This document shows positions 72 through 26,828 of a DNA stretch of 32,000 nt, piece by piece. Position numbers and translations under genes: made by a program. Origin of the DNA: Alkanindiges illinoisensis DSM 15370 (lineage in GTDB: Bacteria > Pseudomonadota > Gammaproteobacteria > Pseudomonadales > Moraxellaceae); NCBI RefSeq assembly GCF_000619845.1, contig NZ_JHUX01000003.1, positions 370,064 through 402,063 of the forward strand, read 5' to 3'. The first letter of the stretch is position 1, and every line of letters starts with the position of its first letter. The notes beneath the pieces are model-generated. The model saw only the letters and a list, made by a program, of their open reading frames with translations. It searched no databases and had not been told where the DNA came from.

Positions 72-1229
72 TTAATCCAGAGGATTCCCCACAATATTGC
101 TGATAATGCCCTGCATAATGTGTGAACCCTGCTCCTGATATAAATCTGCATACCATTGCCGGGTGGCCGTTTCATCTTTCATATGGGTAATGTCACAGCG
201 CTTGCGGGCACGGAGTACCATTTCCCGGGTACGTTCATTGCGTTTGTTCTGGTAGCGTTCCAGTGCATCTTCCAGGCCAAAGGTATTGATCTGGAGGGCG
301 CGTGCCAGATAAATAGCATCTTCCATGGCCTGACAGCCACCCTGACCGATATCAGGCGTGGTACTGTGCGCTGCATCACCCAGAATCACGACACGACCCT
401 TATAAAATTGCATAAACGGTTCGATGTCATGAATTTCAACCCGGTTGGTGGTTTGCGGATTCAGGCAGTCAATCAGGGCTTGTACCGGTGCGCACCAGCC
501 AGCAAAATGCGTTTTTAAATCCTGCTGGTACTGTGCTTTCTGGTTATCTAGGCCGGCCGGCAGGGGTACATCAAAAAAGAAGTAAAACTGGTTGTTGGCC
601 ACTGGCATCATGGACACCCGTTTTCCCTCTCCAACAAATGTAGTCCACTGGTTGGCAGGCGCCAGATCATCACTGATCTCAACCAGTCCATTCCAGTTCA
701 CATAACCGGCGTAGCGCCGCGCGACCTGTTCGCCCAGCACATGGGTGCGGGTGAGCGAGTGCGTACCATCGGCACCAATCAGCAGGTCTGCGCTGACGAT
801 GCTGCCGTCGCTAAACTGCGCACGGACACAACTGCCGTGGTCTTCAATTTTTTCCATACGCATGCCAAGCCGGATATTCTGGTGCCCGAATTCCTCCATC
901 AGCATGGCTTGCAGCGCAGCGCGTGATACCGGATAGGCGCGTTGCCCCACCTCCTGATATAAAGGCATCAGGCTAAACTGGGTCATGGTAGTATTGGAAA
1001 GGCCATCGATATAAGCCAGATCGTCCATCCGGCCGCCAAGCTGGGCGATTTGTTCTGTCAGGCCCAGATAGTTTAGGCACTTGACTCCATTGGACCACAG
1101 TGAGATGGCAGCGCCCACAGGAAGAATTTCAGCAGCCTGTTCATAAATGGTGACCTGATGGCCGAACTTTTGAAGTGCTATACCAGCGGTCAGACCGCCC
1201 ATACCAGCACCAATAATCATAATATTCAT
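72..1229 (-). CDS. hpxO: FAD-dependent urate hydroxylase (HpxO-type monooxygenase)
   Basis: 385-aa ORF. N-terminal Rossmann GxGxxG (IIGAGMGGL). Flavin monooxygenase motifs LIGADGTHS and [21 protein letters not shown] Shine-Dalgarno about 8 nt before ATG 1229. Sits in a cluster with hiuH and uraD and no cofactor-less uricase. Confidence 0.85.
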
Positions 1230-1275: not shown

Positions 1276-1291
1276 AGCGAGAACTATGCCA
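1276..1291 (-). promoter_or_regulatory. weak sigma-54-like -24/-12 element upstream of hpxO
   Basis: Minus strand reads TGGCAT-agttc-TCGCT with correct GG-N10-GC spacing, about 47 bp upstream of the hpxO ATG. The -12 box has C instead of T. Confidence 0.3.
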
Positions 1292-1367: not shown

Positions 1368-1411
1368 AAACATGAAAAACCCGTTTTGCAAAAGCCGATA
1401 AGATTGTTATT

Positions 1412-1426
1412 ACTGGTCTGACCAGT
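1412..1426. promoter_or_regulatory. GntR/FadR-type operator palindrome, copy 1
   Basis: ACTGGTCTGACCAGT is a perfect 7-1-7 inverted repeat, extendable to TACTGGTCTGACCAGTA. The core TGGTnnnACCA matches the FadR-subfamily GntR operator pattern. Lies in the hpxO upstream region. Confidence 0.6.
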
Positions 1427-1576
1427 ATCTGGCCCACCATTAGTTGCAGCAAGCCTTAAAAGTACAGGCGAGACCACCAATGGAATAAATATGGGGCAAC
1501 TCTGCACGAGAATATGGCATAAGCGGCACCTAATGGTGCACTTGTTATTTTATGGCTTTTTGCAAAAAAATTGGAC

Positions 1577-2287
1577 TTAGGACTGATGGCTTAAAAAGTA
1601 AACACCGGCACGCTGGGCTGCGCAAATTACATGTTTTTTCATGGCCTGTTCAGCGGCCAGGCTATCCCTGGCGCATAGTGCGTCAAGAATATGCTGGTGC
1701 TCCAGAATGGTTTGATGGGCCAGACTGGGCTGGATAAAGGGTAGTACCTGACTTTGCTTTAACGCTTCTGTCTGGTTTTTTAAAATCTGGACCACTGAAG
1801 GATTATGGCTTAATTCAAGAATGCGCTGATGAAACTGATGATCATGCAGGGCGGCTTCCTGCCAGTTCTGCTGTTCAATGGCGGTTTTAAGCTGCTCAAA
1901 ATGACTTTTAAACAACTGCTGATCTTTTTCATTAAGATAATGACACGCCAGCATGGCGCAAAAGCTTTCCAGCACATAGCGTAACTGGTAAAAATCTTTT
2001 AATGACCCACTATGGGTCTGGTTCCATTGTTCCACCGGCTGGCTGTCCAGTGCAGTCACATAAACCCCTTTGCCAGCCAGAATCTTAAGTTGGCCAAGCG
2101 CTGCCAGCCGGGTCAGGGCTTCGCGTAATGAAGCGCGGCTAATCCCAAGCTGTAGCGCCAGTTCGCGCTGTGAAGGCAGGGCAGCACCAACCGGATAAAC
2201 TCCCTGCTGAATCCAGTCGTAAATGGTAATGACGGCTTGTTCAGTCACTTGTGAGGGCTGTCTGGTTATAATTGATTGAGGCTTCAT
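1577..2287 (-). CDS. GntR-family (FadR/FCD subfamily) transcriptional regulator
   Basis: N-terminal winged HTH (LPSQRELALQLGISRASLREALTRL) followed by an all-helical His-rich FCD-like domain. Start is ambiguous: ATG at 2287 or in-frame GTG at 2302, neither with a clear SD. Confidence 0.85.
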   Translation of the reverse strand: MKPQSIITRQPSQVTEQAVITIYDWIQQGVYPVGAALPSQRELALQLGISRASLREALTRLAALGQLKILAGKGVYVTALDSQPVEQWNQTHSGSLKDFYQLRYVLESFCAMLACHYLNEKDQQLFKSHFEQLKTAIEQQNWQEAALHDHQFHQRILELSHNPSVVQILKNQTEALKQSQVLPFIQPSLAHQTILEHQHILDALCARDSLAAEQAMKKHVICAAQRAGVYFLSHQS

Positions 2288-2436
2288 ATTGATCGGGTTC
2301 ACTACAGTGGCCTGTTTGCCACATTTAATTAAATACCGTGTATGTTTTACTGGATTTATAAAAAAATAACCAGCAACCGCTTTTAGAAAAATCTGGCCGA
2401 ATGACCACTATTCACGCTGATGATTAATTCATGCTA

Positions 2437-2451
2437 ACTGGTCTGACCAGT
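2437..2451. promoter_or_regulatory. GntR/FadR-type operator palindrome, copy 2
   Basis: Identical ACTGGTCTGACCAGT in the divergent gntR-alc intergenic region, with flanks A/T extending the palindrome to 17 bp. Ends 1 bp before the -24 TGG of the alc promoter candidate. Confidence 0.65.
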
Positions 2452-2467
2452 TGGATTGGTTTTTGCA
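2452..2467 (+). promoter_or_regulatory. sigma-54-like -24/-12 promoter for alc-allA
   Basis: TGGATT-ggttt-TTGCA with GG-N10-GC spacing, 46 bp upstream of the alc ATG. Confidence 0.55.
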
Positions 2468-2512
2468 TGATATTCACAGTCTCCAGACTATCAGGATTTA
2501 GGGTGTTATTTT

Positions 2513-3538
2513 ATGAGCATTAGTTATGCCAAGCCGGCTGATCTACCGGAACATTTCAAACGTTTGGTCAATCTGGCCGATGCACGGATTGGCACCACTA
2601 TCGTGGCGTGCTCCGATGAGTTTTTTGCCAAGGCCGAACGCATGTTACAAACAGCGCCTGCCATGTTTATCGCTGACAAGTTTGATGATCATGGCAAATG
2701 GATGGATGGCTGGGAAACCCGGCGCAAGCGTGAGGCTGGCTATGACTGGTGTATTGTTCGCCTGGGTGTTGCCGGGCAGATTACCGGCTTTGATGTGGAT
2801 ACGTCCTTTTTTACCGGCAACTACCCGGCTTCTGCATCCATAGAAGCCTGTTATGCACCGGATGACCAGCTGGATGAGCAGACAACATGGGTGGAGCTGG
2901 TTGCCAACCATATCCTGTCGCCGGATCATCATCATCTGATTGAAGCCAGCCAGCAGGGGCAGCCATTTACCCATATCCGCCTGAATATCTTTCCGGATGG
3001 CGGCATTGCACGCTTGCGGGTCTATGGCCAGGTGGTCTTGCAGTCACAGGCTGCTACAGACCCGCTTGATCTGGTGGCCCTGAAAAATGGGGGCAGGATA
3101 GTGGCGTTTAGTGATGCGCATTTTGGTCATCCCAACAATTTATTAAATCCGGGCCGTGGCATTAACATGGGTGATGGCTGGGAAACCAAGCGTCGCCGGG
3201 CACCCGGACACGACTGGTGCATTATTGCGCTGGGCCAGCCGGGTCAGGTTGAGCGGATTGAGGTGGATACTGCGCATTTTAAGGGCAACTATCCGGCTTT
3301 TTGCTCTATTCAGGCCGTCTATGTGGAAAATGCCACGGATGCACAGCTCATCCCGCAAAGTATGTTCTGGCCGTTTTTGTTAAATGACCAGCCATTAAGC
3401 ATGGATCACATCCATACCTATATTTCTGAAATTCTGCACGAGCAAAAAATTAGCCATATCCGCCTGAATATGATCCCTGATGGCGGCATCAGCCGTATCC
3501 GGTTATGGGGCAAGATAGCGCTTGAAGATGGCGTTTGA
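2513..3538 (+). CDS. alc: allantoicase
   Basis: 341 aa with the two tandem allantoicase repeats, each carrying the DGWET(R/K)R(K/R)R...DWCI motif (GWETRRKREAGYDWCIVRLG and GWETKRRRAPGHDWCIIALG). Confidence 0.9.
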   Translation: MSISYAKPADLPEHFKRLVNLADARIGTTIVACSDEFFAKAERMLQTAPAMFIADKFDDHGKWMDGWETRRKREAGYDWCIVRLGVAGQITGFDVDTSFFTGNYPASASIEACYAPDDQLDEQTTWVELVANHILSPDHHHLIEASQQGQPFTHIRLNIFPDGGIARLRVYGQVVLQSQAATDPLDLVALKNGGRIVAFSDAHFGHPNNLLNPGRGINMGDGWETKRRRAPGHDWCIIALGQPGQVERIEVDTAHFKGNYPAFCSIQAVYVENATDAQLIPQSMFWPFLLNDQPLSMDHIHTYISEILHEQKISHIRLNMIPDGGISRIRLWGKIALEDGV

Positions 3539-3638
3539 TTAACCACTTTAGTCTAAAACCGGGTGTTAGTTCTAGTCCGATTTTAACTTCGAGGTTTTAA
3601 GTTGAAGGTATTTATTTGGAATTTTTAGGATAACTATA

Positions 3639-4163
3639 ATGACCCTGACTGTCGCGTTACAACCACTGACTGCGGCATGCTTTGCCGCTTTTGGTGACGT
3701 GATTGAATGTGCTGGCCAGCCCTTATCCATTAATCAGGGCCAAACAGAACGTTACCATGCTTTGTCCTTGCCACAGGTTGCTGGTGAGGCCGCAAGCATT
3801 GGCCTGAGTATTTTCAGAAATTTACAGGCCAGTACGCTGCCGTTACAGATCGACATGCTGGAGCGCCATCCACAGGGGAGCCAGTCGTTTATTCCCATGG
3901 ATGGACAGGCCTTTGTCATTGTGGTGGCACTGCCGTTAGACGACCGGCAACCGGATGAAGCGCAGGTTTGTGCTTTTTTAAGTAACGGCCAGCAAGGGAT
4001 AACCTATGCCAGAGGCGTGTGGCACCATCCGCTGATTACGCTGGAAGCACCCAGTAATTTTCTGGTGGTGGACCGTATTGGCACAGGCCATAACTGTGAC
4101 ATTCATCAGTTGAGCCAGCCTTGTCTGATTAGGGTAGAAACTGCAGTGCCAGTGGCTAATTAG
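3639..4163 (+). CDS. allA: ureidoglycolate lyase
   Basis: 174-aa protein matching the AllA family along its length (FGDVIE..., LERHPQGSQSFIPM, GVWHHPLI). AGGA SD 8 nt upstream. Immediately downstream of alc. Confidence 0.88.
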   Translation: MTLTVALQPLTAACFAAFGDVIECAGQPLSINQGQTERYHALSLPQVAGEAASIGLSIFRNLQASTLPLQIDMLERHPQGSQSFIPMDGQAFVIVVALPLDDRQPDEAQVCAFLSNGQQGITYARGVWHHPLITLEAPSNFLVVDRIGTGHNCDIHQLSQPCLIRVETAVPVAN

Positions 4164-4190
4164 TCAACAGGTCACAATTGATAGTGAACA

Positions 4191-4229
4191 AAAAAAGCTG
4201 CTTTTGCATTGATCAAAAGCAGCTTTTTT
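4191..4229. terminator. bidirectional Rho-independent terminator
   Basis: AAAAAAGCTGCTTTTG - cattgat - CAAAAGCAGCTTTTTT is a 16-bp perfect stem flanked by an A-run and a T-run. It lies between the convergent allA and 2OG oxygenase genes. Confidence 0.8.
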
Positions 4230-4243
4230 ATTAACTGGAGTAA

Positions 4244-5260
4244 TTAATATTTGCCCTCAAAGTTGGCACTAATGCGTTGTTGCAAGTAATCCCGGGCGGT
4301 AATGGCCGGATATTTTTTGTTCGGCCCTTCAATGATGACATCTTCATTGGCCTGGCAGAAAAATGCCAGACTATAGCGGGCACCCTGATACTCATGCGCA
4401 GCCGGATTTTTGACCCGGTGAAAATTGGAAGGCAACTGGTCATCACTCCAGCGCGTGAGCATATCGCCAATATTACAGGTAATCACCTCATCGTGAGGCT
4501 GGATACTGGTCCATTCCTGGTCTTCCATATCCTTGCCCGGGCATACCTGCAAGCCGCCCTGTCCATTGCGCTGGAACAGTAAAGTCAGGCAGTCAAAATC
4601 GGTATGGGCACCAGCACGCCACAGGCCCAACTGGTCTTTTAGGGCTGGGTCAATGGCATAGTAATGCAGCATGCGCAGCGTACTTTGGTAGCTTTGCTTG
4701 GAGGGATCATGCGCCTGTGTGAAAAAATCATCACTAAAGCCCAGCTTATAGGCAAAGCAGGACAGGATTTTCATGCCAGTCTGCCAGCAGGCCTGTTCAA
4801 AGTTCAGCATGGTTTCCTGAAAGTCAGGCAATTCCTGCACGCTGGGCCATAAACCATCCATGCGGGGGCGGGTAATTTGATAGGATTCTTTCTGGTCTGG
4901 TGTATTGGTTGATGGCCTGATCTGTGCCTTGCTTTCCCAGCCTGCATTCCGCTTGAGTGGATACTGTGCCTTTACCTCAGCGGGTAGTGCAAAAAACTGT
5001 TCGGTGCTGGCAAAAGCCTGCTGAATCTGGCTTAAGGGAATGCCATGGTTGGCAACCTGAAAAAATCCAATGTCCACCGCAGCATTCCAGAGCTGGTCAG
5101 CAATCTCAAACTTGCGCTGTTCAAAGTCAGACAAGTCAATAATACGGATTTCTCGGGCAAAGGTTTCCTGTCCCATGGCACCCATGCGGGCTTCTTTTTT
5201 GAGTTCATCGAGGGAATAGGGCGTGGACAGGGTAGGATCAATGGTATTGGAGCCGTTCAT
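4244..5260 (-). CDS. 2-oxoglutarate/Fe(II)-dependent oxygenase (isopenicillin-N-synthase-like family), substrate unknown
   Basis: 338 aa. DIOX_N-like N-terminus (GFFQVANHGIP). HxD...H facial triad (GAHTDFD ... SNFHRV). 2OG-binding RxS (ARYSLAFF). AGGA SD 8 nt before the ATG. Confidence 0.8.
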   Translation of the reverse strand: MNGSNTIDPTLSTPYSLDELKKEARMGAMGQETFAREIRIIDLSDFEQRKFEIADQLWNAAVDIGFFQVANHGIPLSQIQQAFASTEQFFALPAEVKAQYPLKRNAGWESKAQIRPSTNTPDQKESYQITRPRMDGLWPSVQELPDFQETMLNFEQACWQTGMKILSCFAYKLGFSDDFFTQAHDPSKQSYQSTLRMLHYYAIDPALKDQLGLWRAGAHTDFDCLTLLFQRNGQGGLQVCPGKDMEDQEWTSIQPHDEVITCNIGDMLTRWSDDQLPSNFHRVKNPAAHEYQGARYSLAFFCQANEDVIIEGPNKKYPAITARDYLQQRISANFEGKY

Positions 5261-5480
5261 GTTAGTGTTCCTGCATTTACTGAAAAATCAAGGTGTGGCC
5301 CAATATATGCATGGTACTGCCATCGGGTCACGTCTCATGAAAAACACTGACCCTGCGATATTCCTGGAATAGGATCTATCAGGTGTCAGCTATTTTCCGA
5401 GCAATGACCCACATACGCATCATTTTAAATTCTGGCAAAATGACTGTATGTTGAACGCTTCTACTCTGGTGTAGTCAGTA

Positions 5481-5496
5481 AGCAATTGCTGTACCA
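5481..5496 (-). promoter_or_regulatory. sigma-54-like -24/-12 promoter for the 2OG oxygenase gene
   Basis: Minus strand reads TGGTAC-agcaa-TTGCT with correct spacing. It implies a leader of about 210 nt before the ATG at 5260. Confidence 0.5.
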
Positions 5497-5686
5497 TTCT
5501 GGCTTAAAATTTTTTTACTGAATTTTATTGTTTTATATTCAATGAATTAAGGTAATACATGTTCCAGGTAAAATAGACAACAGCACAGTCGCTTTTCCTG
5601 TATTTTCCTGTCTTTATTTAGGTCTGCACCATGATTGAGCAATTTGCCGGCTTATCACCATCGTGAACCACGATGGCGCAGATAAT

Positions 5687-5701
5687 ACTGGTCTGACCAG
5701 T
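5687..5701. promoter_or_regulatory. GntR/FadR-type operator palindrome, copy 3
   Basis: Third identical ACTGGTCTGACCAGT (17-bp version TACTGGTCTGACCAGTA). Lies between the divergent 2OG oxygenase and NMT1-type ABC promoters. Confidence 0.6.
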
Positions 5702-5790
5702 AAGCCACTTTTTTGCAGGGCTGCTTCCTGTTTAAATGATTTTTGGTTTTTGATTTATAAATCATTAGCTTAATTACAAGAAATACAATA

Positions 5791-5806
5791 TGGCATAGCC
5801 TTTGCA
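5791..5806 (+). promoter_or_regulatory. sigma-54-like -24/-12 promoter for the NMT1-type ABC transporter operon
   Basis: TGGCAT-agcct-TTGCA is a near-consensus match. It lies 189 bp upstream of ATG 5995, so the leader is about 175 nt. Confidence 0.6.
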
Positions 5807-5882
5807 AGTTTGTATTCTGAGTATAAGCGGTTAGTGCGTATCAACAACGCATGGGACATTGCTCTGCAGCGAAAGCTGCTCC

Positions 5883-5994: not shown

Positions 5995-6987
5995 ATGAAA
6001 AAGAATCATTCTATCCATATGCCACGTTTCGCACTGCTCACTGCGGCTGTCTTGTGCAGCACATTTACTCAAGCCAATGATAAACTGGTTTTACAAACCA
6101 CATGGTATGCCCAGGCAGAGCAGGGCGGTTATTATCAGGCTGTTGCGCAAGGCATTTATAAAAAATACGGACTGGACGTGACGGTAAAGGCAGGCGGCCC
6201 GCAGGTCAATAATATGACCTTACTGCTGGCCAAGCGTGCAGACGTTATTATTAATTATGACCTGCAAGTGCTCAAAGGTATTGAGCAAGGTTTTCCCATC
6301 AAGGCAATTGCAGCACCATTCCAGTTTGATCCGCAAGGCATGCTGACGCATGGTGATGTCAAAAACCTGGCCGGCCTTAAAGGCAAAACCATCCTGGTTT
6401 CTGCCAGTGGGCAAGCCAGCTGGTGGCCATGGTTAAAAGCCAAATATCATCTGGAAGAAAGTCAGGCCCGTCCATACACCTTCAACATGCAGCCATTTCT
6501 GGCCGGCAAGAATGTTGCACAACAAGCCTATGCCACCTCAGAAGTCTTACAGGCCAAAAAAGCAGATCCGGGCAGTAATTTCTTCCTGTTTGCCAATGAG
6601 GGCTATCCGTCCTATGGCGGTATCCTGGTTACCCGCAACGATGTTCTGCAAAGCAAGCCGGATGTCCTGCAGCGCTTTGTCAAGGCTTCCATGGAGGGCT
6701 GGAAAAGCTATCTGGCCAACCCGGCACTGGGTAATGCCCTGATTAAAAAAGAAAACCCGAACATGACTGACGACGTGCTGGCGTTTGGGGTGTCGCAAAT
6801 GAAAAAACTGCATTTGATTGATGGTGGCGATGCGGCAACCAAAGGTTATGGCGTGATGACCGATGCACGCTGGAAAGCCACACGGGATTTTATGGTAGAA
6901 ACCAAGTTACTTGATGCCAAAACCAACTGGTCCAGTGCCTACACCACCCAGTTTTTTGCACCTGCCAGCAAAAAGCCGGCAAAGTAA
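5995..6987 (+). CDS. ABC transporter periplasmic substrate-binding protein, NMT1/THI5-like (NitT/TauT family)
   Basis: 330 aa. Signal peptide ending TFTQA/ND. NMT1/THI5-like fold signature by overall resemblance. SD AGAGG 7 nt upstream. Followed by a cognate ATPase and permease. Confidence 0.85.
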   Translation: MKKNHSIHMPRFALLTAAVLCSTFTQANDKLVLQTTWYAQAEQGGYYQAVAQGIYKKYGLDVTVKAGGPQVNNMTLLLAKRADVIINYDLQVLKGIEQGFPIKAIAAPFQFDPQGMLTHGDVKNLAGLKGKTILVSASGQASWWPWLKAKYHLEESQARPYTFNMQPFLAGKNVAQQAYATSEVLQAKKADPGSNFFLFANEGYPSYGGILVTRNDVLQSKPDVLQRFVKASMEGWKSYLANPALGNALIKKENPNMTDDVLAFGVSQMKKLHLIDGGDAATKGYGVMTDARWKATRDFMVETKLLDAKTNWSSAYTTQFFAPASKKPAK

Positions 6988-7041
6988 TTTCATTTTTAGG
7001 TGAGTAAAGAGTCGCAATACGCAACAATGGGGGAACCTAAA

Positions 7042-7863
7042 ATGAATACTGCATTATCACTTGATTCAATGGTCGCAACGCCCAGGCCACAGGATATTCC
7101 CATGCTGATGGCAAACGGCGTTGAGAAAATCTATCCTAACGGCACACATGCGCTGGAGCGTCTGAACTTACACATTGCCCGTGGTGAAATCGTATCCCTG
7201 CTCGGCCCCTCAGGCTGTGGCAAAAGTACCTTGCTAAAGATGTTTGCTGATCTGGAGCAGCCCTCAGCAGGCCAGATTCGCTGGAATGGCAAAGGCGATA
7301 TCCAGTCGCAGTGCAACATGGCCATGGTATTTCAGGAAGCGACGTTAATGCCGTGGGCCACGATTGAAGACAATGTTCGCCTGCCACTGGATTTACAGGG
7401 TATTTCCAAAAATACCAGTACGGCTAAAGTCCATGCAGCCCTGGAAGCAGTAGGCCTGGGCAAGTTTACCAGGGCGTTTCCGCGTGAGCTGTCCGGTGGC
7501 ATGCAAATGCGTGCTTCGCTGGCGCGCGCGCTGGTGACCGAACCGGACTTGCTGCTGATGGATGAACCCTTTGGCGCGCTGGATGAGTTTACCCGGCAAA
7601 AACTGGACAGTGACATCCGGTCATTATGGGCGGAACAGGATCTAACCGTGGTGTTTGTCACCCACAGTATTTATGAGGCGGTGTATTTATCATCGCGCGT
7701 GATTGTCATGGGCGCACGGCCGGGCCGCGTGGTGGCTGATGTGGCGATTGAAGGCGCTGCCATTCGTGATGACCAATTCCGCACCTCGGAATCATTTATC
7801 AAGCAGTGTGCGCAATTGTCCTCAATTCTTGAGCAAGCCAGTGGAGGGACGCATCATGGCTAA
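7042..7863 (+). CDS. ABC transporter ATP-binding protein (NitT/TauT family)
   Basis: Walker A GPSGCGKST, signature LSGGMQMR, Walker B LLLMDEPFGALD. Start placed at ATG 7042 (GGGGGAA SD 6 nt upstream) rather than the ORF-track GTG at 7000. Confidence 0.85.
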   Translation: MNTALSLDSMVATPRPQDIPMLMANGVEKIYPNGTHALERLNLHIARGEIVSLLGPSGCGKSTLLKMFADLEQPSAGQIRWNGKGDIQSQCNMAMVFQEATLMPWATIEDNVRLPLDLQGISKNTSTAKVHAALEAVGLGKFTRAFPRELSGGMQMRASLARALVTEPDLLLMDEPFGALDEFTRQKLDSDIRSLWAEQDLTVVFVTHSIYEAVYLSSRVIVMGARPGRVVADVAIEGAAIRDDQFRTSESFIKQCAQLSSILEQASGGTHHG

Positions 7864-8650
7864 ACCGCTAATGAGTTATCCCGCGATCCAGCGGATTGTA
7901 GCGCCGCTCATTGTGGGGATTGTGCTGATCCTGAGCTGGCAAATCAGCTTTCAGCAGATGAATGTTCCTGTTTATATCGTGCCCAAGCCCAGTGATATCG
8001 CGCATACCATGGTCATACAGGCGCCGTTATTATTTGGCAGCTTACTGGTTACGCTTAAGATTACCCTGCTGGCATTTTTACTGGCGGTAGTCATTGGGGT
8101 AGTGGTTGCCTTTATTTTTGTGCAAAGCCGGGTGATTGAAGCCTGCGTGATGCCCTATGCCATTTTGTTTCAGGTCACGCCGGTGGTTGCCATTGCACCA
8201 TTAGTCATTATCTGGATTCAAAACACCACAATGGCACTGGTCGTATGTGCGATGCTGGTTGCCGTATTTCCGGTACTCACCAACACCACACTGGGTCTGC
8301 GCAGTGTCAATGCCGGGCTGCTCAATCTGTTTCGCATCAATAAAGCCAGTCGCTGGCAGGTACTGATGCGTTTGCGTGTCCCCAATGCCTTGCCGTATTT
8401 TTTTAGTGGTTTGCGTATTTCCTGCGGTCTGGCCCTGATTGGTGCTGTGGTTGCCGAGTTTGTGGCTGGTACTGGCGGAACCAGTGCTGGCCTGGCCTAC
8501 CAGATTTTGCAGGCAGGCTTTCAGCTGGATTTGCCACTCATGTTTGCTGCCTTAGTGTTGATTACCTGTACCGGCTTAACCCTGTTTATCATCATGTCCA
8601 TGATAAGCCAGTTCTTTTTACGCAAATGGCATGACAGTGAATTGGGCTAG
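7856..8650 (+). CDS. ABC transporter permease (BPD_transp_1 type)
   Basis: Polytopic hydrophobic 264-aa protein. Start ATG 7856 has a GGAGGGA SD and an 8-bp overlap with the ATPase stop. The ORF-track start at 7703 lies inside the ATPase gene. Confidence 0.85.
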   Translation: MAKPLMSYPAIQRIVAPLIVGIVLILSWQISFQQMNVPVYIVPKPSDIAHTMVIQAPLLFGSLLVTLKITLLAFLLAVVIGVVVAFIFVQSRVIEACVMPYAILFQVTPVVAIAPLVIIWIQNTTMALVVCAMLVAVFPVLTNTTLGLRSVNAGLLNLFRINKASRWQVLMRLRVPNALPYFFSGLRISCGLALIGAVVAEFVAGTGGTSAGLAYQILQAGFQLDLPLMFAALVLITCTGLTLFIIMSMISQFFLRKWHDSELG

Positions 8651-8662
8651 GGCATTTTGAGA

Positions 8663-10102
8663 ATGAGTCAAATGAATATCTTGATTAAAAACGCCTATGC
8701 CATCCTTACTGGACAGGCAGGGCATCAGGCCAGACATACCGCAACAGATATCCGCATTGTTAATGGCATCATTCAGGATATGGGCAGTCTTACCGCACAG
8801 CCTGATGAACAGGTGATTGATGCCCGGGACTGTGTGATTTATCCGGCCTGGGTCAACACCCATCATCACCTGTTCCAGTCTTTACTTAAAGGCGAACCAC
8901 AGGGCTTAAACCAGAGTTTAACACCGTGGCTGGCCGCAACACCTTATCGCTTCCGGGGATCATTTGATGAAGAAACCTTCAGGCTGGCGGCACGCATCGG
9001 CCTGATTGAACTGTTACGTTCCGGCTGCGCGACCGTGGCTGATCATCATTATTTATACTGGCCGGGCATGCCATTTGATGGCGCGGCTATTTTGTTTGAA
9101 GAAGCCACGCAACTGGGCATGCGCTTTGTGTTGTGCCGTGGCGGTGCGACGCAAACCCGCGGGCTGGAAGCCGACCTGCCACAGGCCATGCGACCGGAAA
9201 AATTTGATGCATTCATGCAGGATGTCGAGCGGCTGGTGGCCACATATCATGACCCATCCGCCAATGCCATGCGCCGGGTTGTCATGGCACCTACCACCAC
9301 GCTGCACTCCACCACGGCACCTGAGCTGCGTGAAACAGCCCGATTGGCCCGGCAACTTAATATTCGGATGCATAGCCATTTATCCGAAACCGTAGATTAT
9401 CTGGATGCCGCCAAAGCCAAGTTTGGCATGACCCCCATCCAGTTTTGTGCCGAACATGACTGGATTGGTGAAGATGTCTGGTTTGCCCATCTGGTCAAAT
9501 TATTGCCGGAAGAAATTGCACTGCTGGGCCAGACCAGAACCGGAATTGCCCATTGTCCGCAAAGCAATGCACGTTTGGGCAGTGGTATTGCTGATCTGGT
9601 TGCGCTTGAACATGCTGGTGTAAAGGTGTCTATCGGGGTTGATGGGGCAGCATCCAACGAGGCGGCGGATATGCTGTCAGAAACCCATGCTGCATGGCTC
9701 TTGCAACGGGCCCGTAAAGGCATGCTGGCACAGCCCCGCTATGAGGGTGGCCTGTTTGAAGGCGGTGCGGATGCGGCGAGTATTGAAGATGTGATTCGCT
9801 GGGGCACTGCTGGCGGCGCACAGGTATTGGGCCTGGATAATATCGGCACGCTTGAGATTGGCAAGGCAGCTGATCTGGTGGTGTACCAGCTTGATGATCC
9901 GCGCTATTTCGGCCTGCATGACATGGCAATTGGACCCGTGGCGAGTGGTGGGCGGGCGCACATTAAAATCATGCTGATTAATGGGAAAGTCGTGATGGAG
10001 CATGACCAGATACCCGGTATCAGTATGCCGGAACTGGCTTTTCAGGCCCAGCAGGCGGTCAGACAGTTACAACAGCGCGCTAGCCGGATTGCTGTTGCCT
10101 AA
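8663..10102 (+). CDS. amidohydrolase-superfamily deaminase (AtzB / 8-oxoguanine-deaminase-like group), substrate unknown
   Basis: Metal ligands WVNTHHHLFQS (HxH), HSHLSET, HCPQSN, GVDGAASN. Last gene of the NMT1-type ABC operon. Start could be TTG 8657, ATG 8663 or ATG 8672. Confidence 0.8.
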   Translation: MSQMNILIKNAYAILTGQAGHQARHTATDIRIVNGIIQDMGSLTAQPDEQVIDARDCVIYPAWVNTHHHLFQSLLKGEPQGLNQSLTPWLAATPYRFRGSFDEETFRLAARIGLIELLRSGCATVADHHYLYWPGMPFDGAAILFEEATQLGMRFVLCRGGATQTRGLEADLPQAMRPEKFDAFMQDVERLVATYHDPSANAMRRVVMAPTTTLHSTTAPELRETARLARQLNIRMHSHLSETVDYLDAAKAKFGMTPIQFCAEHDWIGEDVWFAHLVKLLPEEIALLGQTRTGIAHCPQSNARLGSGIADLVALEHAGVKVSIGVDGAASNEAADMLSETHAAWLLQRARKGMLAQPRYEGGLFEGGADAASIEDVIRWGTAGGAQVLGLDNIGTLEIGKAADLVVYQLDDPRYFGLHDMAIGPVASGGRAHIKIMLINGKVVMEHDQIPGISMPELAFQAQQAVRQLQQRASRIAVA

Positions 10103-10292: not shown

Positions 10293-11264
10293 GTGAATAG
10301 ACTTGATGTTGATGGTGCCGCACTGGTACAGGAAATCCAGGCTGGCGCTTATCCGCGTGATATGGTGGGTTATGGTGCCCATCCACCACAGGCAAACTGG
10401 CCTAATCAGGCGAGGGTGGCTGTGCAGTTTGTGCTGAATTATGAAGAGGGCGGCGAGAGTCATGTTGCCCATGGTGATGCCGGTTCAGAGCAATTCCTGT
10501 CAGAAATTAGTGGCGCTGCCAGTTATCCAGATCGGCATTTGTCGATGGATTCGATTTATGAATACGGTTCAAGGGCAGGGTTCTGGCGCATTCATCAGGA
10601 GTTTGCCCGCCGTGGTTTACCGCTGACCATATTTGGGGTTGCCATGGCACTGGCACGTAATCCTGATGTGGTCGAAGCCATCAGGCAGCAGCAGTATGAT
10701 GTGGTATCGCATGGCATGCGCTGGTTACATTACCAGAATGTGCCGGTTGAAACTGAACGGTTGCATATGGCGCAAGCATTGGCGGTATTACAGCACCTGT
10801 TTGGCAAGGCACCCATTGGCTGGTATACCGGCCGTGATAGCCCGCGCACACGGCAGCTGCTGGCAGAGTTCGATCATATTCAGTATGACAGCGATTATTA
10901 TGGCGATGATTTGCCATTCTGGACCACACTGACCAATGCGCAAGGAAACACCAGACCGCATCTCATTGTGCCTTATACCTTGGACACCAATGACATGAAG
11001 TTTGCTGCACCAGCAGGCTTTGATCATGCCGAGCCGTTTTATCAGTATCTAAAAGATGCGTTCGATGTGCTGTATGCTGAAGGTGAGACTTCACCCAAAA
11101 TGCTATCCATCGGGATGCACTGCCGCATTCTGGGGCGCCCTGCACGTTTTCGGGCATTACAGCGTTTTCTGGATTATATACAGGGCCACGATCAGGTCTG
11201 GATTTGCCGCCGGCATGATATAGCCATGCACTGGTATGCCCAGCATCCCTATAAAGAAAAGTAA
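10293..11264 (+). CDS. puuE: allantoinase, PuuE type (polysaccharide-deacetylase fold)
   Basis: YPRDMVGYG...PP..WP and FVLNYEEGGE motifs typical of PuuE, then the deacetylase-like core. GTG start with an AAAGG SD. The N-terminus is about 18 aa longer than the PuuE sequences I recall, so the start is uncertain. Confidence 0.88.
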   Translation: MNRLDVDGAALVQEIQAGAYPRDMVGYGAHPPQANWPNQARVAVQFVLNYEEGGESHVAHGDAGSEQFLSEISGAASYPDRHLSMDSIYEYGSRAGFWRIHQEFARRGLPLTIFGVAMALARNPDVVEAIRQQQYDVVSHGMRWLHYQNVPVETERLHMAQALAVLQHLFGKAPIGWYTGRDSPRTRQLLAEFDHIQYDSDYYGDDLPFWTTLTNAQGNTRPHLIVPYTLDTNDMKFAAPAGFDHAEPFYQYLKDAFDVLYAEGETSPKMLSIGMHCRILGRPARFRALQRFLDYIQGHDQVWICRRHDIAMHWYAQHPYKEK

Positions 11265-11374: not shown

Positions 11375-11390
11375 TGGCATAAACCCTGCT
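11375..11390 (+). promoter_or_regulatory. sigma-54-like -24/-12 element upstream of guaD
   Basis: TGGCAT-aaacc-CTGCT with correct GG-N10-GC spacing, 118 bp upstream of ATG 11508. Confidence 0.4.
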
Positions 11391-12995: not shown

Positions 12996-13011
12996 TGGTA
13001 CTGGCTTTGCT
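12996..13011 (+). promoter_or_regulatory. sigma-54-like -24/-12 promoter for uraD-hiuH
   Basis: TGGTAC-tggct-TTGCT with correct spacing, 68-107 bp upstream of the candidate uraD starts. Confidence 0.5.
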
Positions 13012-13944: not shown

Positions 13945-14276
13945 AATAGCCAGTTATATGTGGTTTGACTTTGCATGGTTTAGCCTGAGTATTCCAGCTT
14001 GCATTAACCGGCTTTGAACGTCTTGAGGGGTGTACATTTTTGGGCAATAGCGGCATAGGTTATATCTATTTTGTGATACTCCTGTTTGCACTGAAATTGC
14101 CGGAAAATAAAACCACTTTAGTTAAAATTTAATAAAAATAATATAAATCAATTAGATATGAATTAATAGAAGTCCGTATGTTACTTAGGCCTGAAGCAGG
14201 AGAGCAATATACGGGCTTGGCATATGCTTTGCTTGAACCTGATTATCTGTTTTTGCATATAAGGTCAGAACACAAA

Positions 14277-15200
14277 ATGCGTCCATCCAGTAAGTGGGAA
14301 TCTTTGGATGTTCCTTTATTACAGGTGCTACATGCCTTGCTCATTGAAAAAAGTGTTTCCAATGCTGCCCGCCGTTTAAACCAGTCACAACCTGCGGTGA
14401 GTACCTCACTGCGTAAATTGCGTGAAATTACCGGTGATCAGTTGCTGGTACGCAGCCGTAATGGCATGACACCTACAGAGCGCGGGCTGGCGTTGCTGGA
14501 ACCTGTGACCCATGTGTTAAACCAGATTGAAAAAATTGGCGTGCAACAGGTGCATTTTGATCCTGCACAGTCCCGTCAGGTGTTTAATCTGGCAACGCCT
14601 GACTATTTAAGTGCCATTGATCTGGGCGAGGTGATTCGCCGTATTCGGGTAGAAGCCCCACATACCACCATCATGATTCATTCGCTGGGGCATGATTTTG
14701 ATTATGCCCAGGCGCTGGAAAGCGGCATGCTGGATGCGGTGATTGCCAACTGGCCACAGCCACCAGAGCATTTGCGTCTGGCGCCCTTATTTGATGATGA
14801 GGTGGTCTGCCTGATGCGCAAAAGTCATCCACTGGCCAATAAGCCACTGACACTGGATGATTATTTGTCTGCCGAGCATCTGGCACCTACCCCTTACACA
14901 GTGGGCCAGCGTGGCGTGATTGACCTGCATCTGGCTAAGGAACGCCTAAAGCGCAATATTGTGGCATACGTGCCCTATTTTAGTATGGTGCCGTATATGC
15001 TGCTGCAAATGAATGCCGTGTTTTCGCTACCGCGTTCTTTTGCCAAGCATTATTGCTCACTGATGCCATTAACCATTTCTGAAATTCCAATTGATTTTCC
15101 CAAAATTCCCTTTTATGTGCTGTGGCATGAGCGCTCGCACCATTCCGAGGAATATCGCTGGTTTCGCGAGTTACTGGTTTCGGTGTTTCGCCATCATTAG
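14277..15200 (+). CDS. LysR-family transcriptional regulator
   Basis: N-terminal HTH (SVSNAARRLNQSQPAVSTSLRKLRE) plus a LysR substrate-binding domain. ATG 14277 gives the canonical N-terminus. The ORF-track start 14178 adds an implausible extension. Confidence 0.85.
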   Translation: MRPSSKWESLDVPLLQVLHALLIEKSVSNAARRLNQSQPAVSTSLRKLREITGDQLLVRSRNGMTPTERGLALLEPVTHVLNQIEKIGVQQVHFDPAQSRQVFNLATPDYLSAIDLGEVIRRIRVEAPHTTIMIHSLGHDFDYAQALESGMLDAVIANWPQPPEHLRLAPLFDDEVVCLMRKSHPLANKPLTLDDYLSAEHLAPTPYTVGQRGVIDLHLAKERLKRNIVAYVPYFSMVPYMLLQMNAVFSLPRSFAKHYCSLMPLTISEIPIDFPKIPFYVLWHERSHHSEEYRWFRELLVSVFRHH

Positions 15201-20194: not shown

Positions 20195-20210
20195 TGGAAT
20201 GGATGTTGCA
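20195..20210 (+). promoter_or_regulatory. sigma-54-like -24/-12 promoter for xdhABC
   Basis: TGGAAT-ggatg-TTGCA with correct spacing, 62 bp upstream of the xdhA ATG. Confidence 0.55.
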
Positions 20211-26812: not shown

Positions 26813-26828
26813 TGGCATAGAGGTTGCT
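26813..26828 (+). promoter_or_regulatory. sigma-54-like -24/-12 promoter for the ABC ATPase-permease operon
   Basis: TGGCAT-agagg-TTGCT is a near-consensus match, 116 bp upstream of ATG 26944. Confidence 0.6.

Follow-up and report, generated by a model that had tools for sequence, protein, structure and literature searches.

Predicted operators of a GntR/FCD regulator in the purine-catabolism locus of Alkanindiges illinoisensis and their counterparts in Acinetobacter

Known GntR regulators and the present locus

The urate/allantoin and gcl genes of Pseudomonas aeruginosa are repressed by the GntR protein UgmR (PA1520), which uric acid releases, according to the passage of PMC12694930 that cites Xu et al. 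2022 (Environ Microbiol 24:3242). The motif reported for PA1520 from high-throughput systematic evolution of ligands by exponential enrichment is TTGTATACAAT (PMC8041468 supplement), and the sites of the RegPrecise HpxS regulog share the core TGTATACA (PMC4494728 supplement); because their boxes are of the same type, UgmR and HpxS are grouped together here. We analyzed a 32,000-nucleotide stretch of the 3.3-Mb genome of Alkanindiges illinoisensis DSM 15370 (46% G+C, 11 contigs), namely positions 370064 to 402063 of contig NZ_JHUX01000003.1 (C3), hereafter called the window. It encodes another GntR-type regulator among genes for the breakdown of urate and allantoin, accompanied by three copies of one palindrome (sites 1 to 3) and by a variant just outside the window (site 4). 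The palindrome, WACTGGTCWGACCAGTW, is very probably the operator of this GntR/FCD regulator, a dimer of which would act at the four sites of the purine locus, most likely as a repressor (coordinates in Table 1).

The resemblance to UgmR lies in the arrangement: a local GntR-family repressor, here a predicted one, is encoded within the purine-catabolism cluster, and short palindromes are located in urate/allantoin promoters. The targets overlap as well, comprising hpxO, alc, and allA in this genome and uraD-uraH in Acinetobacter. However, the UgmR/HpxS box TTGTATACAA is unlike that of the present regulator, and no box of this type was found in the window at one mismatch or less. UgmR also controls the gcl glyoxylate genes, whereas no site was seen for gcl here. 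The proteins were compared by means of a stand-in for PA1520, a UgmR-like GntR protein of one Pseudomonas-like genome chosen by synteny and boxes (its gene is next to guaD and has a UgmR-type box upstream), and it is 22% identical to the present regulator (E=3e-7). No P. aeruginosa protein is found among the best 120 of 130 matches to the regulator at E<=1e-20. Within the same order, several genomes have UgmR-type boxes at puuE/uraH, and a scan of 151 genomes of the order with the pattern AATTGTATACAATT gave three matches, with no detectable purine-catabolism genes there. Judging by the low identity to the UgmR-like protein together with the different box, the regulator is a predicted functional counterpart of UgmR/HpxS that is not orthologous to them and stands outside that group.

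In its DNA box, the present system is closer to GlcC and FadR, whose boxes are TACTGGTMGGACCAGTT and AACTGGTCNGACCTGTT, respectively (PMC4494728 supplement). The 17-bp box is nearly the same, and so is the GntR winged-helix fold, with GlcC also carrying an FCD domain, but the regulator here adjoins purine-catabolism genes (hpxO and alc) rather than glc (glcDEF) or fad genes. A third comparison is offered by HutC of Pseudomonas fluorescens, a GntR-family repressor that works together with NtrC/sigma-54 at the hut genes (PMC8034625). Both cases would have a pathway-specific GntR repressor layered on NtrC control of the catabolism of a nitrogen source, with the promoters of the present locus predicted only; HutC differs in belonging to the HutC/UTRA subfamily, in using another box, and in responding to urocanate. 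The xanthine (NMT1-motif) riboswitch RF03054, two matches to which flank site 3, differs from an operator in being an RNA element that acts after initiation, and it is kept in Acinetobacter where the site 3 box is absent.

The palindromes and the regulator across genomes

The exact 15-mer ACTGGTCTGACCAGT occurs at 1412-1426, 2437-2451, and 5687-5701, all inside 4.3 kb, and the flanking bases extend each copy to a perfect 17-bp palindrome. A preliminary description of the stretch, made from the sequence alone, had reported these three copies and their extension to 17 bp, and our pattern search recovered the same coordinates. It had also held that three copies were beyond chance. With up to three mismatches allowed, 7 strand-matches occur in the window where 0.5 would be expected, a count of 7 was not attained in any of 100 shuffles, and the three copies are the only exact ones in the whole genome, all of which bears the claim out. 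Among 7-1-7 palindromes, six have at least three perfect copies genome-wide, and the ACTGGTCTGACCAGT palindrome is the only clustered one; another of the six, TGATAATNATTATCA, resembles a Fur box.

The search of the full genome with one or two mismatches that the preliminary description had proposed was run. It yielded three one-mismatch copies, one of them intergenic (at pbuX) and two in coding sequence, while at two mismatches the 26 matches, compared to 37 for the reversed control, give no enrichment over background. The intergenic copy is site 4, upstream of a pbuX-type xanthine permease gene that adjoins hpxO outside the window. The three sites described earlier are confirmed, and the predicted regulon also includes pbuX, whose site the preliminary description had missed. 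No motif had been seen in front of xdhABC, guaD, uraD, the BMP transporter, or the porin, in agreement with the absence of any further window site of at least 12 bits. Since the other two one-mismatch copies, in rsfS (C4:76023) and in the FKBP isomerase gene (C5:15138), lie inside coding sequence, they are probably due to chance. A three-mismatch match at 11230 is within chance expectation, and a 17.7-bit site at C3:423551 falls in an apparent gene fragment. The best off-locus boxes, at C4:75443 (18.1 bits, 3' end of pta) and C4:76022 (20.3 bits, rsfS), are 580 bp apart and probably fortuitous.

Could the repeats be nonregulatory, that is, products of chance, a small mobile or repetitive extragenic palindrome (REP)-like repeat, or an RNA hairpin or terminator? 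Site 2 does appear in a terminator scan, with a stem of 9 pairs and a T-rich run after it. However, no plus-strand gene ends upstream of site 2, which was therefore rejected as a terminator, and the scans of their regions do not list sites 1 and 3. Chance is excluded by the shuffles and the genome-wide palindrome count, the sequences flanking copies 1 to 3 are unrelated to one another, and conservation of the palindrome is seen in the DNA itself, across promoters that belong to different genes and genera. An explanation of this kind is thus extremely improbable, and the palindromes are better read as operators.

The regulator gene was confirmed at the place given by the preliminary description, and its start is likely the ATG at 2287, where the aligned homologues begin. 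The protein consists of a GntR winged helix-turn-helix domain (PF00392, residues 21-82, E=2e-15) and a C-terminal, all-helical FCD effector domain (PF07729, residues 103-225, E=4.9e-24). In the alignment, the recognition helix ISRASLREAL and the wing GKGVYV are near-invariant among Acinetobacter and Paraburkholderia homologues; D154 is nearly invariant and H158, H202, and H224 are invariant. These residues may correspond to the Asp and three His that form the metal/effector site of many FCD domains. Operators of the FadR subfamily are composed of TKGT/ACMA boxes with 3 nt between GT and AC (PMC4494728), and the box CTGGT-CTG-ACCAG fits this TKGT-N3-ACMA geometry, so that the earlier assignment of the TGGTnnnACCA core to the FadR/FCD subfamily agrees with the published definition. 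The closest curated families are LldR, GlcC, NanR, and PdhR. Nevertheless, the regulator fails both the GlcC model (86.9 bits versus a cut-off of 301) and the FadR model TIGR02812 (46.9 bits versus 249.2), and Pfam assigns FCD, not FadR_C. At E<=1e-10, neither the GlcC nor the FadR model finds another protein in the genome, and this lack of a competitor matters because in other bacteria the boxes of GlcC and FadR are almost the same as this one.

The association of box and regulator was followed through 197 Acinetobacter species genomes. Orthologues of the regulator, 57-65% identical, are found in 28 of them, and 25 of the 28 loci have the box on both sides of gntR in an hpxO-gntR-alc-allA layout, including an orthologous counterpart at the position of site 1. 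Among the Acinetobacter boxes, most differences fall on the three bases at the center and on one position of the flank (ACTGGT[C/A][A/T][G/T]ACC[A/T]GT). A scoring matrix built from the Acinetobacter sites only, with none from the A. illinoisensis genome, ranks the four local sites at the top genome-wide (bit scores in Table 1); the runners-up reach at most 20.3 bits and lie within long open frames, save one in an apparent gene fragment. Across 24 aligned alc upstream regions, the sole strongly conserved block is the box with the adjoining promoter element. The alc gene itself is present in 119 of the 197 species, and in 20 species with alc and without the regulator, the 600 bp 5' of alc hold no site (best score 11.8 bits, 19 of the 20 at 9 or less).

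The pairing extends beyond Acinetobacter. A Paraburkholderia homologue, 44% identical, is divergent from an operon comprising a sodium:dicarboxylate symporter family (SDF) transporter gene, alc, and allA, and the spacer holds TACTGGTCTGACCAGTA, the same 17-mer as sites 1 and 3. In a metagenomic near relative whose regulator is 93% identical, the alc, hpxO, and pbuX sites are kept while their flanks have diverged. Scanning the genome collection with the single regulator sequence returned distant homologues only. We infer binding from the sites, from how well they are conserved, and from their presence together with the regulator: it is well supported that the boxes are operators of the adjacent FadR/FCD-type GntR protein.

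Several observations weigh against this interpretation or against parts of it. In three of the 28 Acinetobacter species that carry the regulator, its gene has no box beside it, and in two of these three, the single perfect box of the genome sits at a transporter gene elsewhere. GlcC and FadR use the same box type in other bacteria (PMC4494728 supplement), so that the identity of the binding protein does not follow from the box by itself. Four Acinetobacter species retain the divergent region of site 3 with both riboswitches and have no box there. Finally, sites 1 and 3 overlap no core promoter in this genome.

The second of these points opens the possibility that another protein binds the palindromes, with the GntR gene an uninvolved neighbor. 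A GlcC or FadR paralogue is suggested by the near-identical box of these regulogs and a LysR regulator by its gene inside the cluster, and NtrC is a further candidate. The genome, however, has no further match to the GlcC or FadR models at the threshold given above, the boxes of LysR and NtrC have a form other than this palindrome, and the box tracks the regulator across Acinetobacter and into Paraburkholderia. We consider a different binding protein very unlikely and retain the adjacent GntR protein as the predicted ligand of the sites.

Two groups of genomes show the regulator in other surroundings. In the two Acinetobacter species whose only perfect box is at a transporter gene (locus L048, 1486-1515, in genome G207; locus L051 in genome G077), the regulator gene lies beside an NMT1 operon with no local box, and the box lies at an SDF gene, where it overlaps the -12 element of the sigma-54-like promoter. 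As an SDF gene is also the first gene of the Paraburkholderia alc-allA operon, the SDF substrate may be a carboxylate of late purine breakdown. Pseudomonas homologues (~40% identical) keep ACTGGTCTGAACAGT in their own divergent spacers (L046, 7840-7854; L076, 2839-2853), and their neighbors are an amino-acid-type ATP-binding cassette (ABC) transporter, an Asp/Glu-racemase-family gene, and an SDF gene. A role of these homologues as purine regulators was ruled out by the non-purine context, in which the retention of ACTGGTCTGAACAGT suggests that the DNA specificity predates the purine role.

Placement on sigma-54-type promoters and proposed mechanism

The sigma-54-type promoters discussed here are consensus matches only, obtained by a TGG-N9-TGC scan. 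Correctly placed and oriented matches precede most cluster operons, and a relaxed consensus is matched perfectly by five window promoters and one just outside, compared to an estimated ~0.1 expected by chance. Both rpoN and a full-scoring ntrC are encoded in the genome, and from the promoter matches we infer sigma-54 dependence. Besides the promoters in Table 1, sigma-54-like promoters on the plus strand lie at 11375-11390 (guaD), 12996-13011 (uraD), 14218-14233 (LysR gene), 20195-20210 (xdhA), and 26813-26828 (ABC operon), and pbuX is also preceded by one (L011, 10236-10251). Because the promoter at 14218 is inside the longest LysR open reading frame (ORF), the true LysR start is probably later. 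Overall, the whole purine supercluster looks nitrogen-controlled. The suggestion of at least two regulatory tiers in the preliminary description is supported, since the cluster has a LysR regulator, sigma-54-type promoters before most operons, and two xanthine riboswitches.

The position of the box relative to these promoters differs among the target genes. At alc, the box ends one base before the -24 TGG, an arrangement conserved throughout Acinetobacter. At pbuX, it follows the -12 element by 15 nt, at about +5 to +19, and two Acinetobacter species have this promoter-N15-box module in front of uraD-uraH(-pbuX); at the Acinetobacter SDF genes, as described above, the box overlaps the -12 element. 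For hpxO, the box is ~120 bp upstream of the -24 element in this genome, and in Acinetobacter, the box is only 18 bp upstream of it with an extra ACCAGT half-site intervening, box and half-site together being 9-18 bp away. Site 3 is 90 bp upstream of the NMT1 -24 element and ~190 bp upstream of that of the 2-oxoglutarate (2OG) oxygenase gene. Since boxes abut, overlap, or follow sigma-54-type promoters, repression is the most likely sign of regulation. It is less certain at sites 1 and 3, which are off the core promoter and may have an activating or purely architectural role.

Two side observations concern hpxO. The extra half-site of the Acinetobacter hpxO operator (for example, in loci L024, L025, and L038) lies 4 nt on, giving ACTGGTATGACCAGTAAAACCAGT, which hints at binding by more than one dimer. 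Upstream of site 1, at 1526-1539, there is an NtrC-like palindrome, GCACC-TAAT-GGTGC, and at the corresponding position the hpxO regions of Acinetobacter (L022-L043) have conserved GCACCA...GCACC motifs, as would suit an enhancer.

If the sites away from core promoters do not repress, the same regulator might be an activator or a dual regulator at the hpxO and 2OG/NMT1 sites, as FadR is at fabA. The upstream distances of sites 1 and 3 and a perfect extended -10 element, TGCTATAAT, on the coding strand between site 1 and hpxO would fit such a role. Yet sigma-54 promoters need an ATPase activator, which a GntR protein cannot replace, and a sigma-70 scan shows no canonical promoter at a suitable distance; a candidate with its -35 element beside site 1 was ruled out by a spacer of 21 nt. 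Moreover, the short distance of box and half-site from the -24 element of hpxO in Acinetobacter, and the contact of the box with the core promoter, or its position past it, at alc, pbuX, uraD, and the SDF gene, argue against activation, which we regard as unlikely.

With repression as the preferred reading, the following mechanism can be proposed. A dimer of the regulator would bind the four sites in the purine-catabolism locus and, without inducer, would repress alc-allA, pbuX, and hpxO and, in this lineage, also the divergent 2OG oxygenase gene and the NMT1-ABC/amidohydrolase operon. Because all target units are apparently read from sigma-54-type promoters, NtrC nitrogen control is the likely activating input. 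At alc, pbuX, and the Acinetobacter SDF gene, the bound regulator would exclude or block polymerase; at hpxO and in the 2OG/NMT1 region, where the box would lie between the presumed enhancer and the promoter, it would hinder activation by looping. Work with synthetic enhancers has shown that proteins located between an enhancer and a sigma-54 promoter can cause repression by quenching (PMC4740811). The inducer, which is probably an intermediate of the pathway, would attach to the FCD domain and thereby free the regulator from DNA.

Which intermediate might this be? LldR, GlcC, NanR, and PdhR are known as sensors of carboxylic acids, and the most widely shared predicted targets are alc-allA and the carboxylate-type SDF transporter. 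Given these nearest families, the conserved Asp and three His, and the alc-allA/SDF targets, we lean toward a small carboxylate, namely allantoate, ureidoglycolate, or glyoxylate. Urate could serve instead, by analogy to UgmR, and is the main alternative effector.

A joint reading of all these features can be offered only tentatively, as a possibility that we consider rather doubtful. A non-orthologous GntR lineage with GlcC/FadR-type specificity would have taken over control from urate to glyoxylate in Acinetobacter-like Moraxellaceae and in Burkholderiaceae, would sense a late carboxylate rather than urate, and would repress sigma-54 promoters in three geometries. If this is true, the purine genes of this genome would integrate nitrogen status through NtrC/sigma-54, a pathway intermediate through the GntR protein, and xanthine/urate through the twin riboswitches.

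Site 3, neighboring genes, and significance

The uncharacterized genes around site 3, for the 2OG oxygenase, the NMT1-type transporter, and the amidohydrolase, had been assigned to the same signal as hpxO and alc in the preliminary description. A perfect site in this genome speaks for the assignment, but the site is not conserved in the four Acinetobacter species mentioned above, from which it follows that the predicted tie of both operons to the GntR protein is a lineage-specific addition resting on one perfect site. The riboswitches in both leaders link these operons to purines independently of the GntR box. The predicted sigma-54 start of the 2OG oxygenase transcript is the 5' end of its riboswitch (5471), and that of the NMT1 operon is likewise the riboswitch start (5814).

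Two further observations were made at this region and its Acinetobacter counterparts. Ten base pairs before site 3, at 5658-5676, there is a perfect 8-3-8 inverted repeat, CCATCGTG-AAC-CACGATGG, which may be a site for another regulator, e.g., the LysR protein. One Acinetobacter species (L114, 3789-3877, in G207) has, close to its 2OG oxygenase locus, a match to the C4 antisense RNA of phage P1/P7 type (RF01695), which suggests that a prophage adjoins the locus.

Table 1. Features of the purine-catabolism locus; positions are those of the window unless preceded by a contig name, and bit scores of operator sites are from the matrix built on Acinetobacter sites.
Feature	Position	Strand	Remarks
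Operator site 1 (predicted), TACTGGTCTGACCAGTA	1411-1427	unstranded	27.5 bits; between gntR stop and hpxO; 183 bp 5' of hpxO ATG
Operator site 2 (predicted), AACTGGTCTGACCAGTT	2436-2452	unstranded	28.4 bits; gntR/alc divergent region
Operator site 3 (predicted), TACTGGTCTGACCAGTA	5686-5702	unstranded	27.5 bits; between divergent 2OG oxygenase gene and NMT1-ABC operon
Operator site 4 (predicted), ACTGGTCTGACCTGT	C3:368266-368280		23.5 bits; one mismatch; intergenic; 1.8 kb before window; ~235 bp 5' of pbuX-type xanthine permease gene
GntR+FCD regulator	1577-2287	-	236 aa from ATG at 2287; ORF open to GTG at 2302
hpxO, FAD-dependent urate hydroxylase	72-1229	-	NF033623, 625.8 bits vs cut-off 500; predicted target of site 1
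alc, allantoicase	2513-3538	+	Predicted target of site 2
allA, ureidoglycolate lyase	3639-4163	+	Predicted target of site 2
2OG-Fe(II) oxygenase gene, IPNS-like DIOX_N type	4244-5260	-	Putative target of site 3
NMT1-type ABC importer	5995-8650	+	Binding protein 5995-6987, then ATPase, permease; putative target of site 3
PRK12393 amidohydrolase	8657-10102	+	End of putative site 3 operon 5995-10102
PuuE	10293-11264	+	
LysR regulator	14178-15200		
hpxO promoter, sigma-54-like, TGGCATAGTTCTCGCT	1276-1291	-	Consensus scan; conserved as TGGCAC-N5-TCGCT in Acinetobacter
alc promoter, sigma-54-like, TGGATTGGTTTTTGCA	2452-2467	+	Consensus scan; conserved in Acinetobacter
2OG oxygenase promoter, sigma-54-like, TGGTACAGCAATTGCT	5481-5496	-	Consensus scan
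NMT1 operon promoter, sigma-54-like, TGGCATAGCCTTTGCA	5791-5806	+	Consensus scan
Xanthine (NMT1-motif) riboswitch, 2OG oxygenase leader	5394-5471	-	RF03054, 47.8 bits vs gathering score 36
Xanthine (NMT1-motif) riboswitch, NMT1-ABC leader	5814-5869	+	RF03054, 52 bits vs gathering score 36

Elsewhere, the window encodes guaD, uraD, uraH, a second amidohydrolase, and a Bmp-type binding protein, as well as a CDA-fold deaminase, xdhABC, adenosine deaminase, and further ABC components. Searches of three same-genus species genomes detected no regulator and no NMT1 operon, suggesting that the purine cluster is accessory in the genus as sampled. The nearest orthologues of the regulator are those of Acinetobacter, and the cluster was possibly acquired.

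As a regulon prediction for an undescribed orthologous group, the operator assignment is strongly supported by the sequence comparisons; it is routine in kind, describes a familiar type of gene switch, and alters no general principle. Two features would lift it slightly above the ordinary: UgmR/HpxS would be replaced by a non-orthologous regulator, and the operator placements on sigma-54 promoters layered with riboswitches are varied. Depending on the bacterium, one pathway would be controlled by GntR proteins that are unrelated and use different boxes. The xanthine permease would be linked to the urate/allantoin switch and, in this lineage, so would an uncharacterized oxygenase and an ABC-importer/amidohydrolase operon. 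The prediction provides a testable regulon and operator for an unstudied group of regulators present in about one-seventh of the sampled Acinetobacter species genomes and also in Paraburkholderia and Burkholderia, and its operator placements on sigma-54 promoters may constitute a natural set for repressor action on enhancer-dependent promoters.

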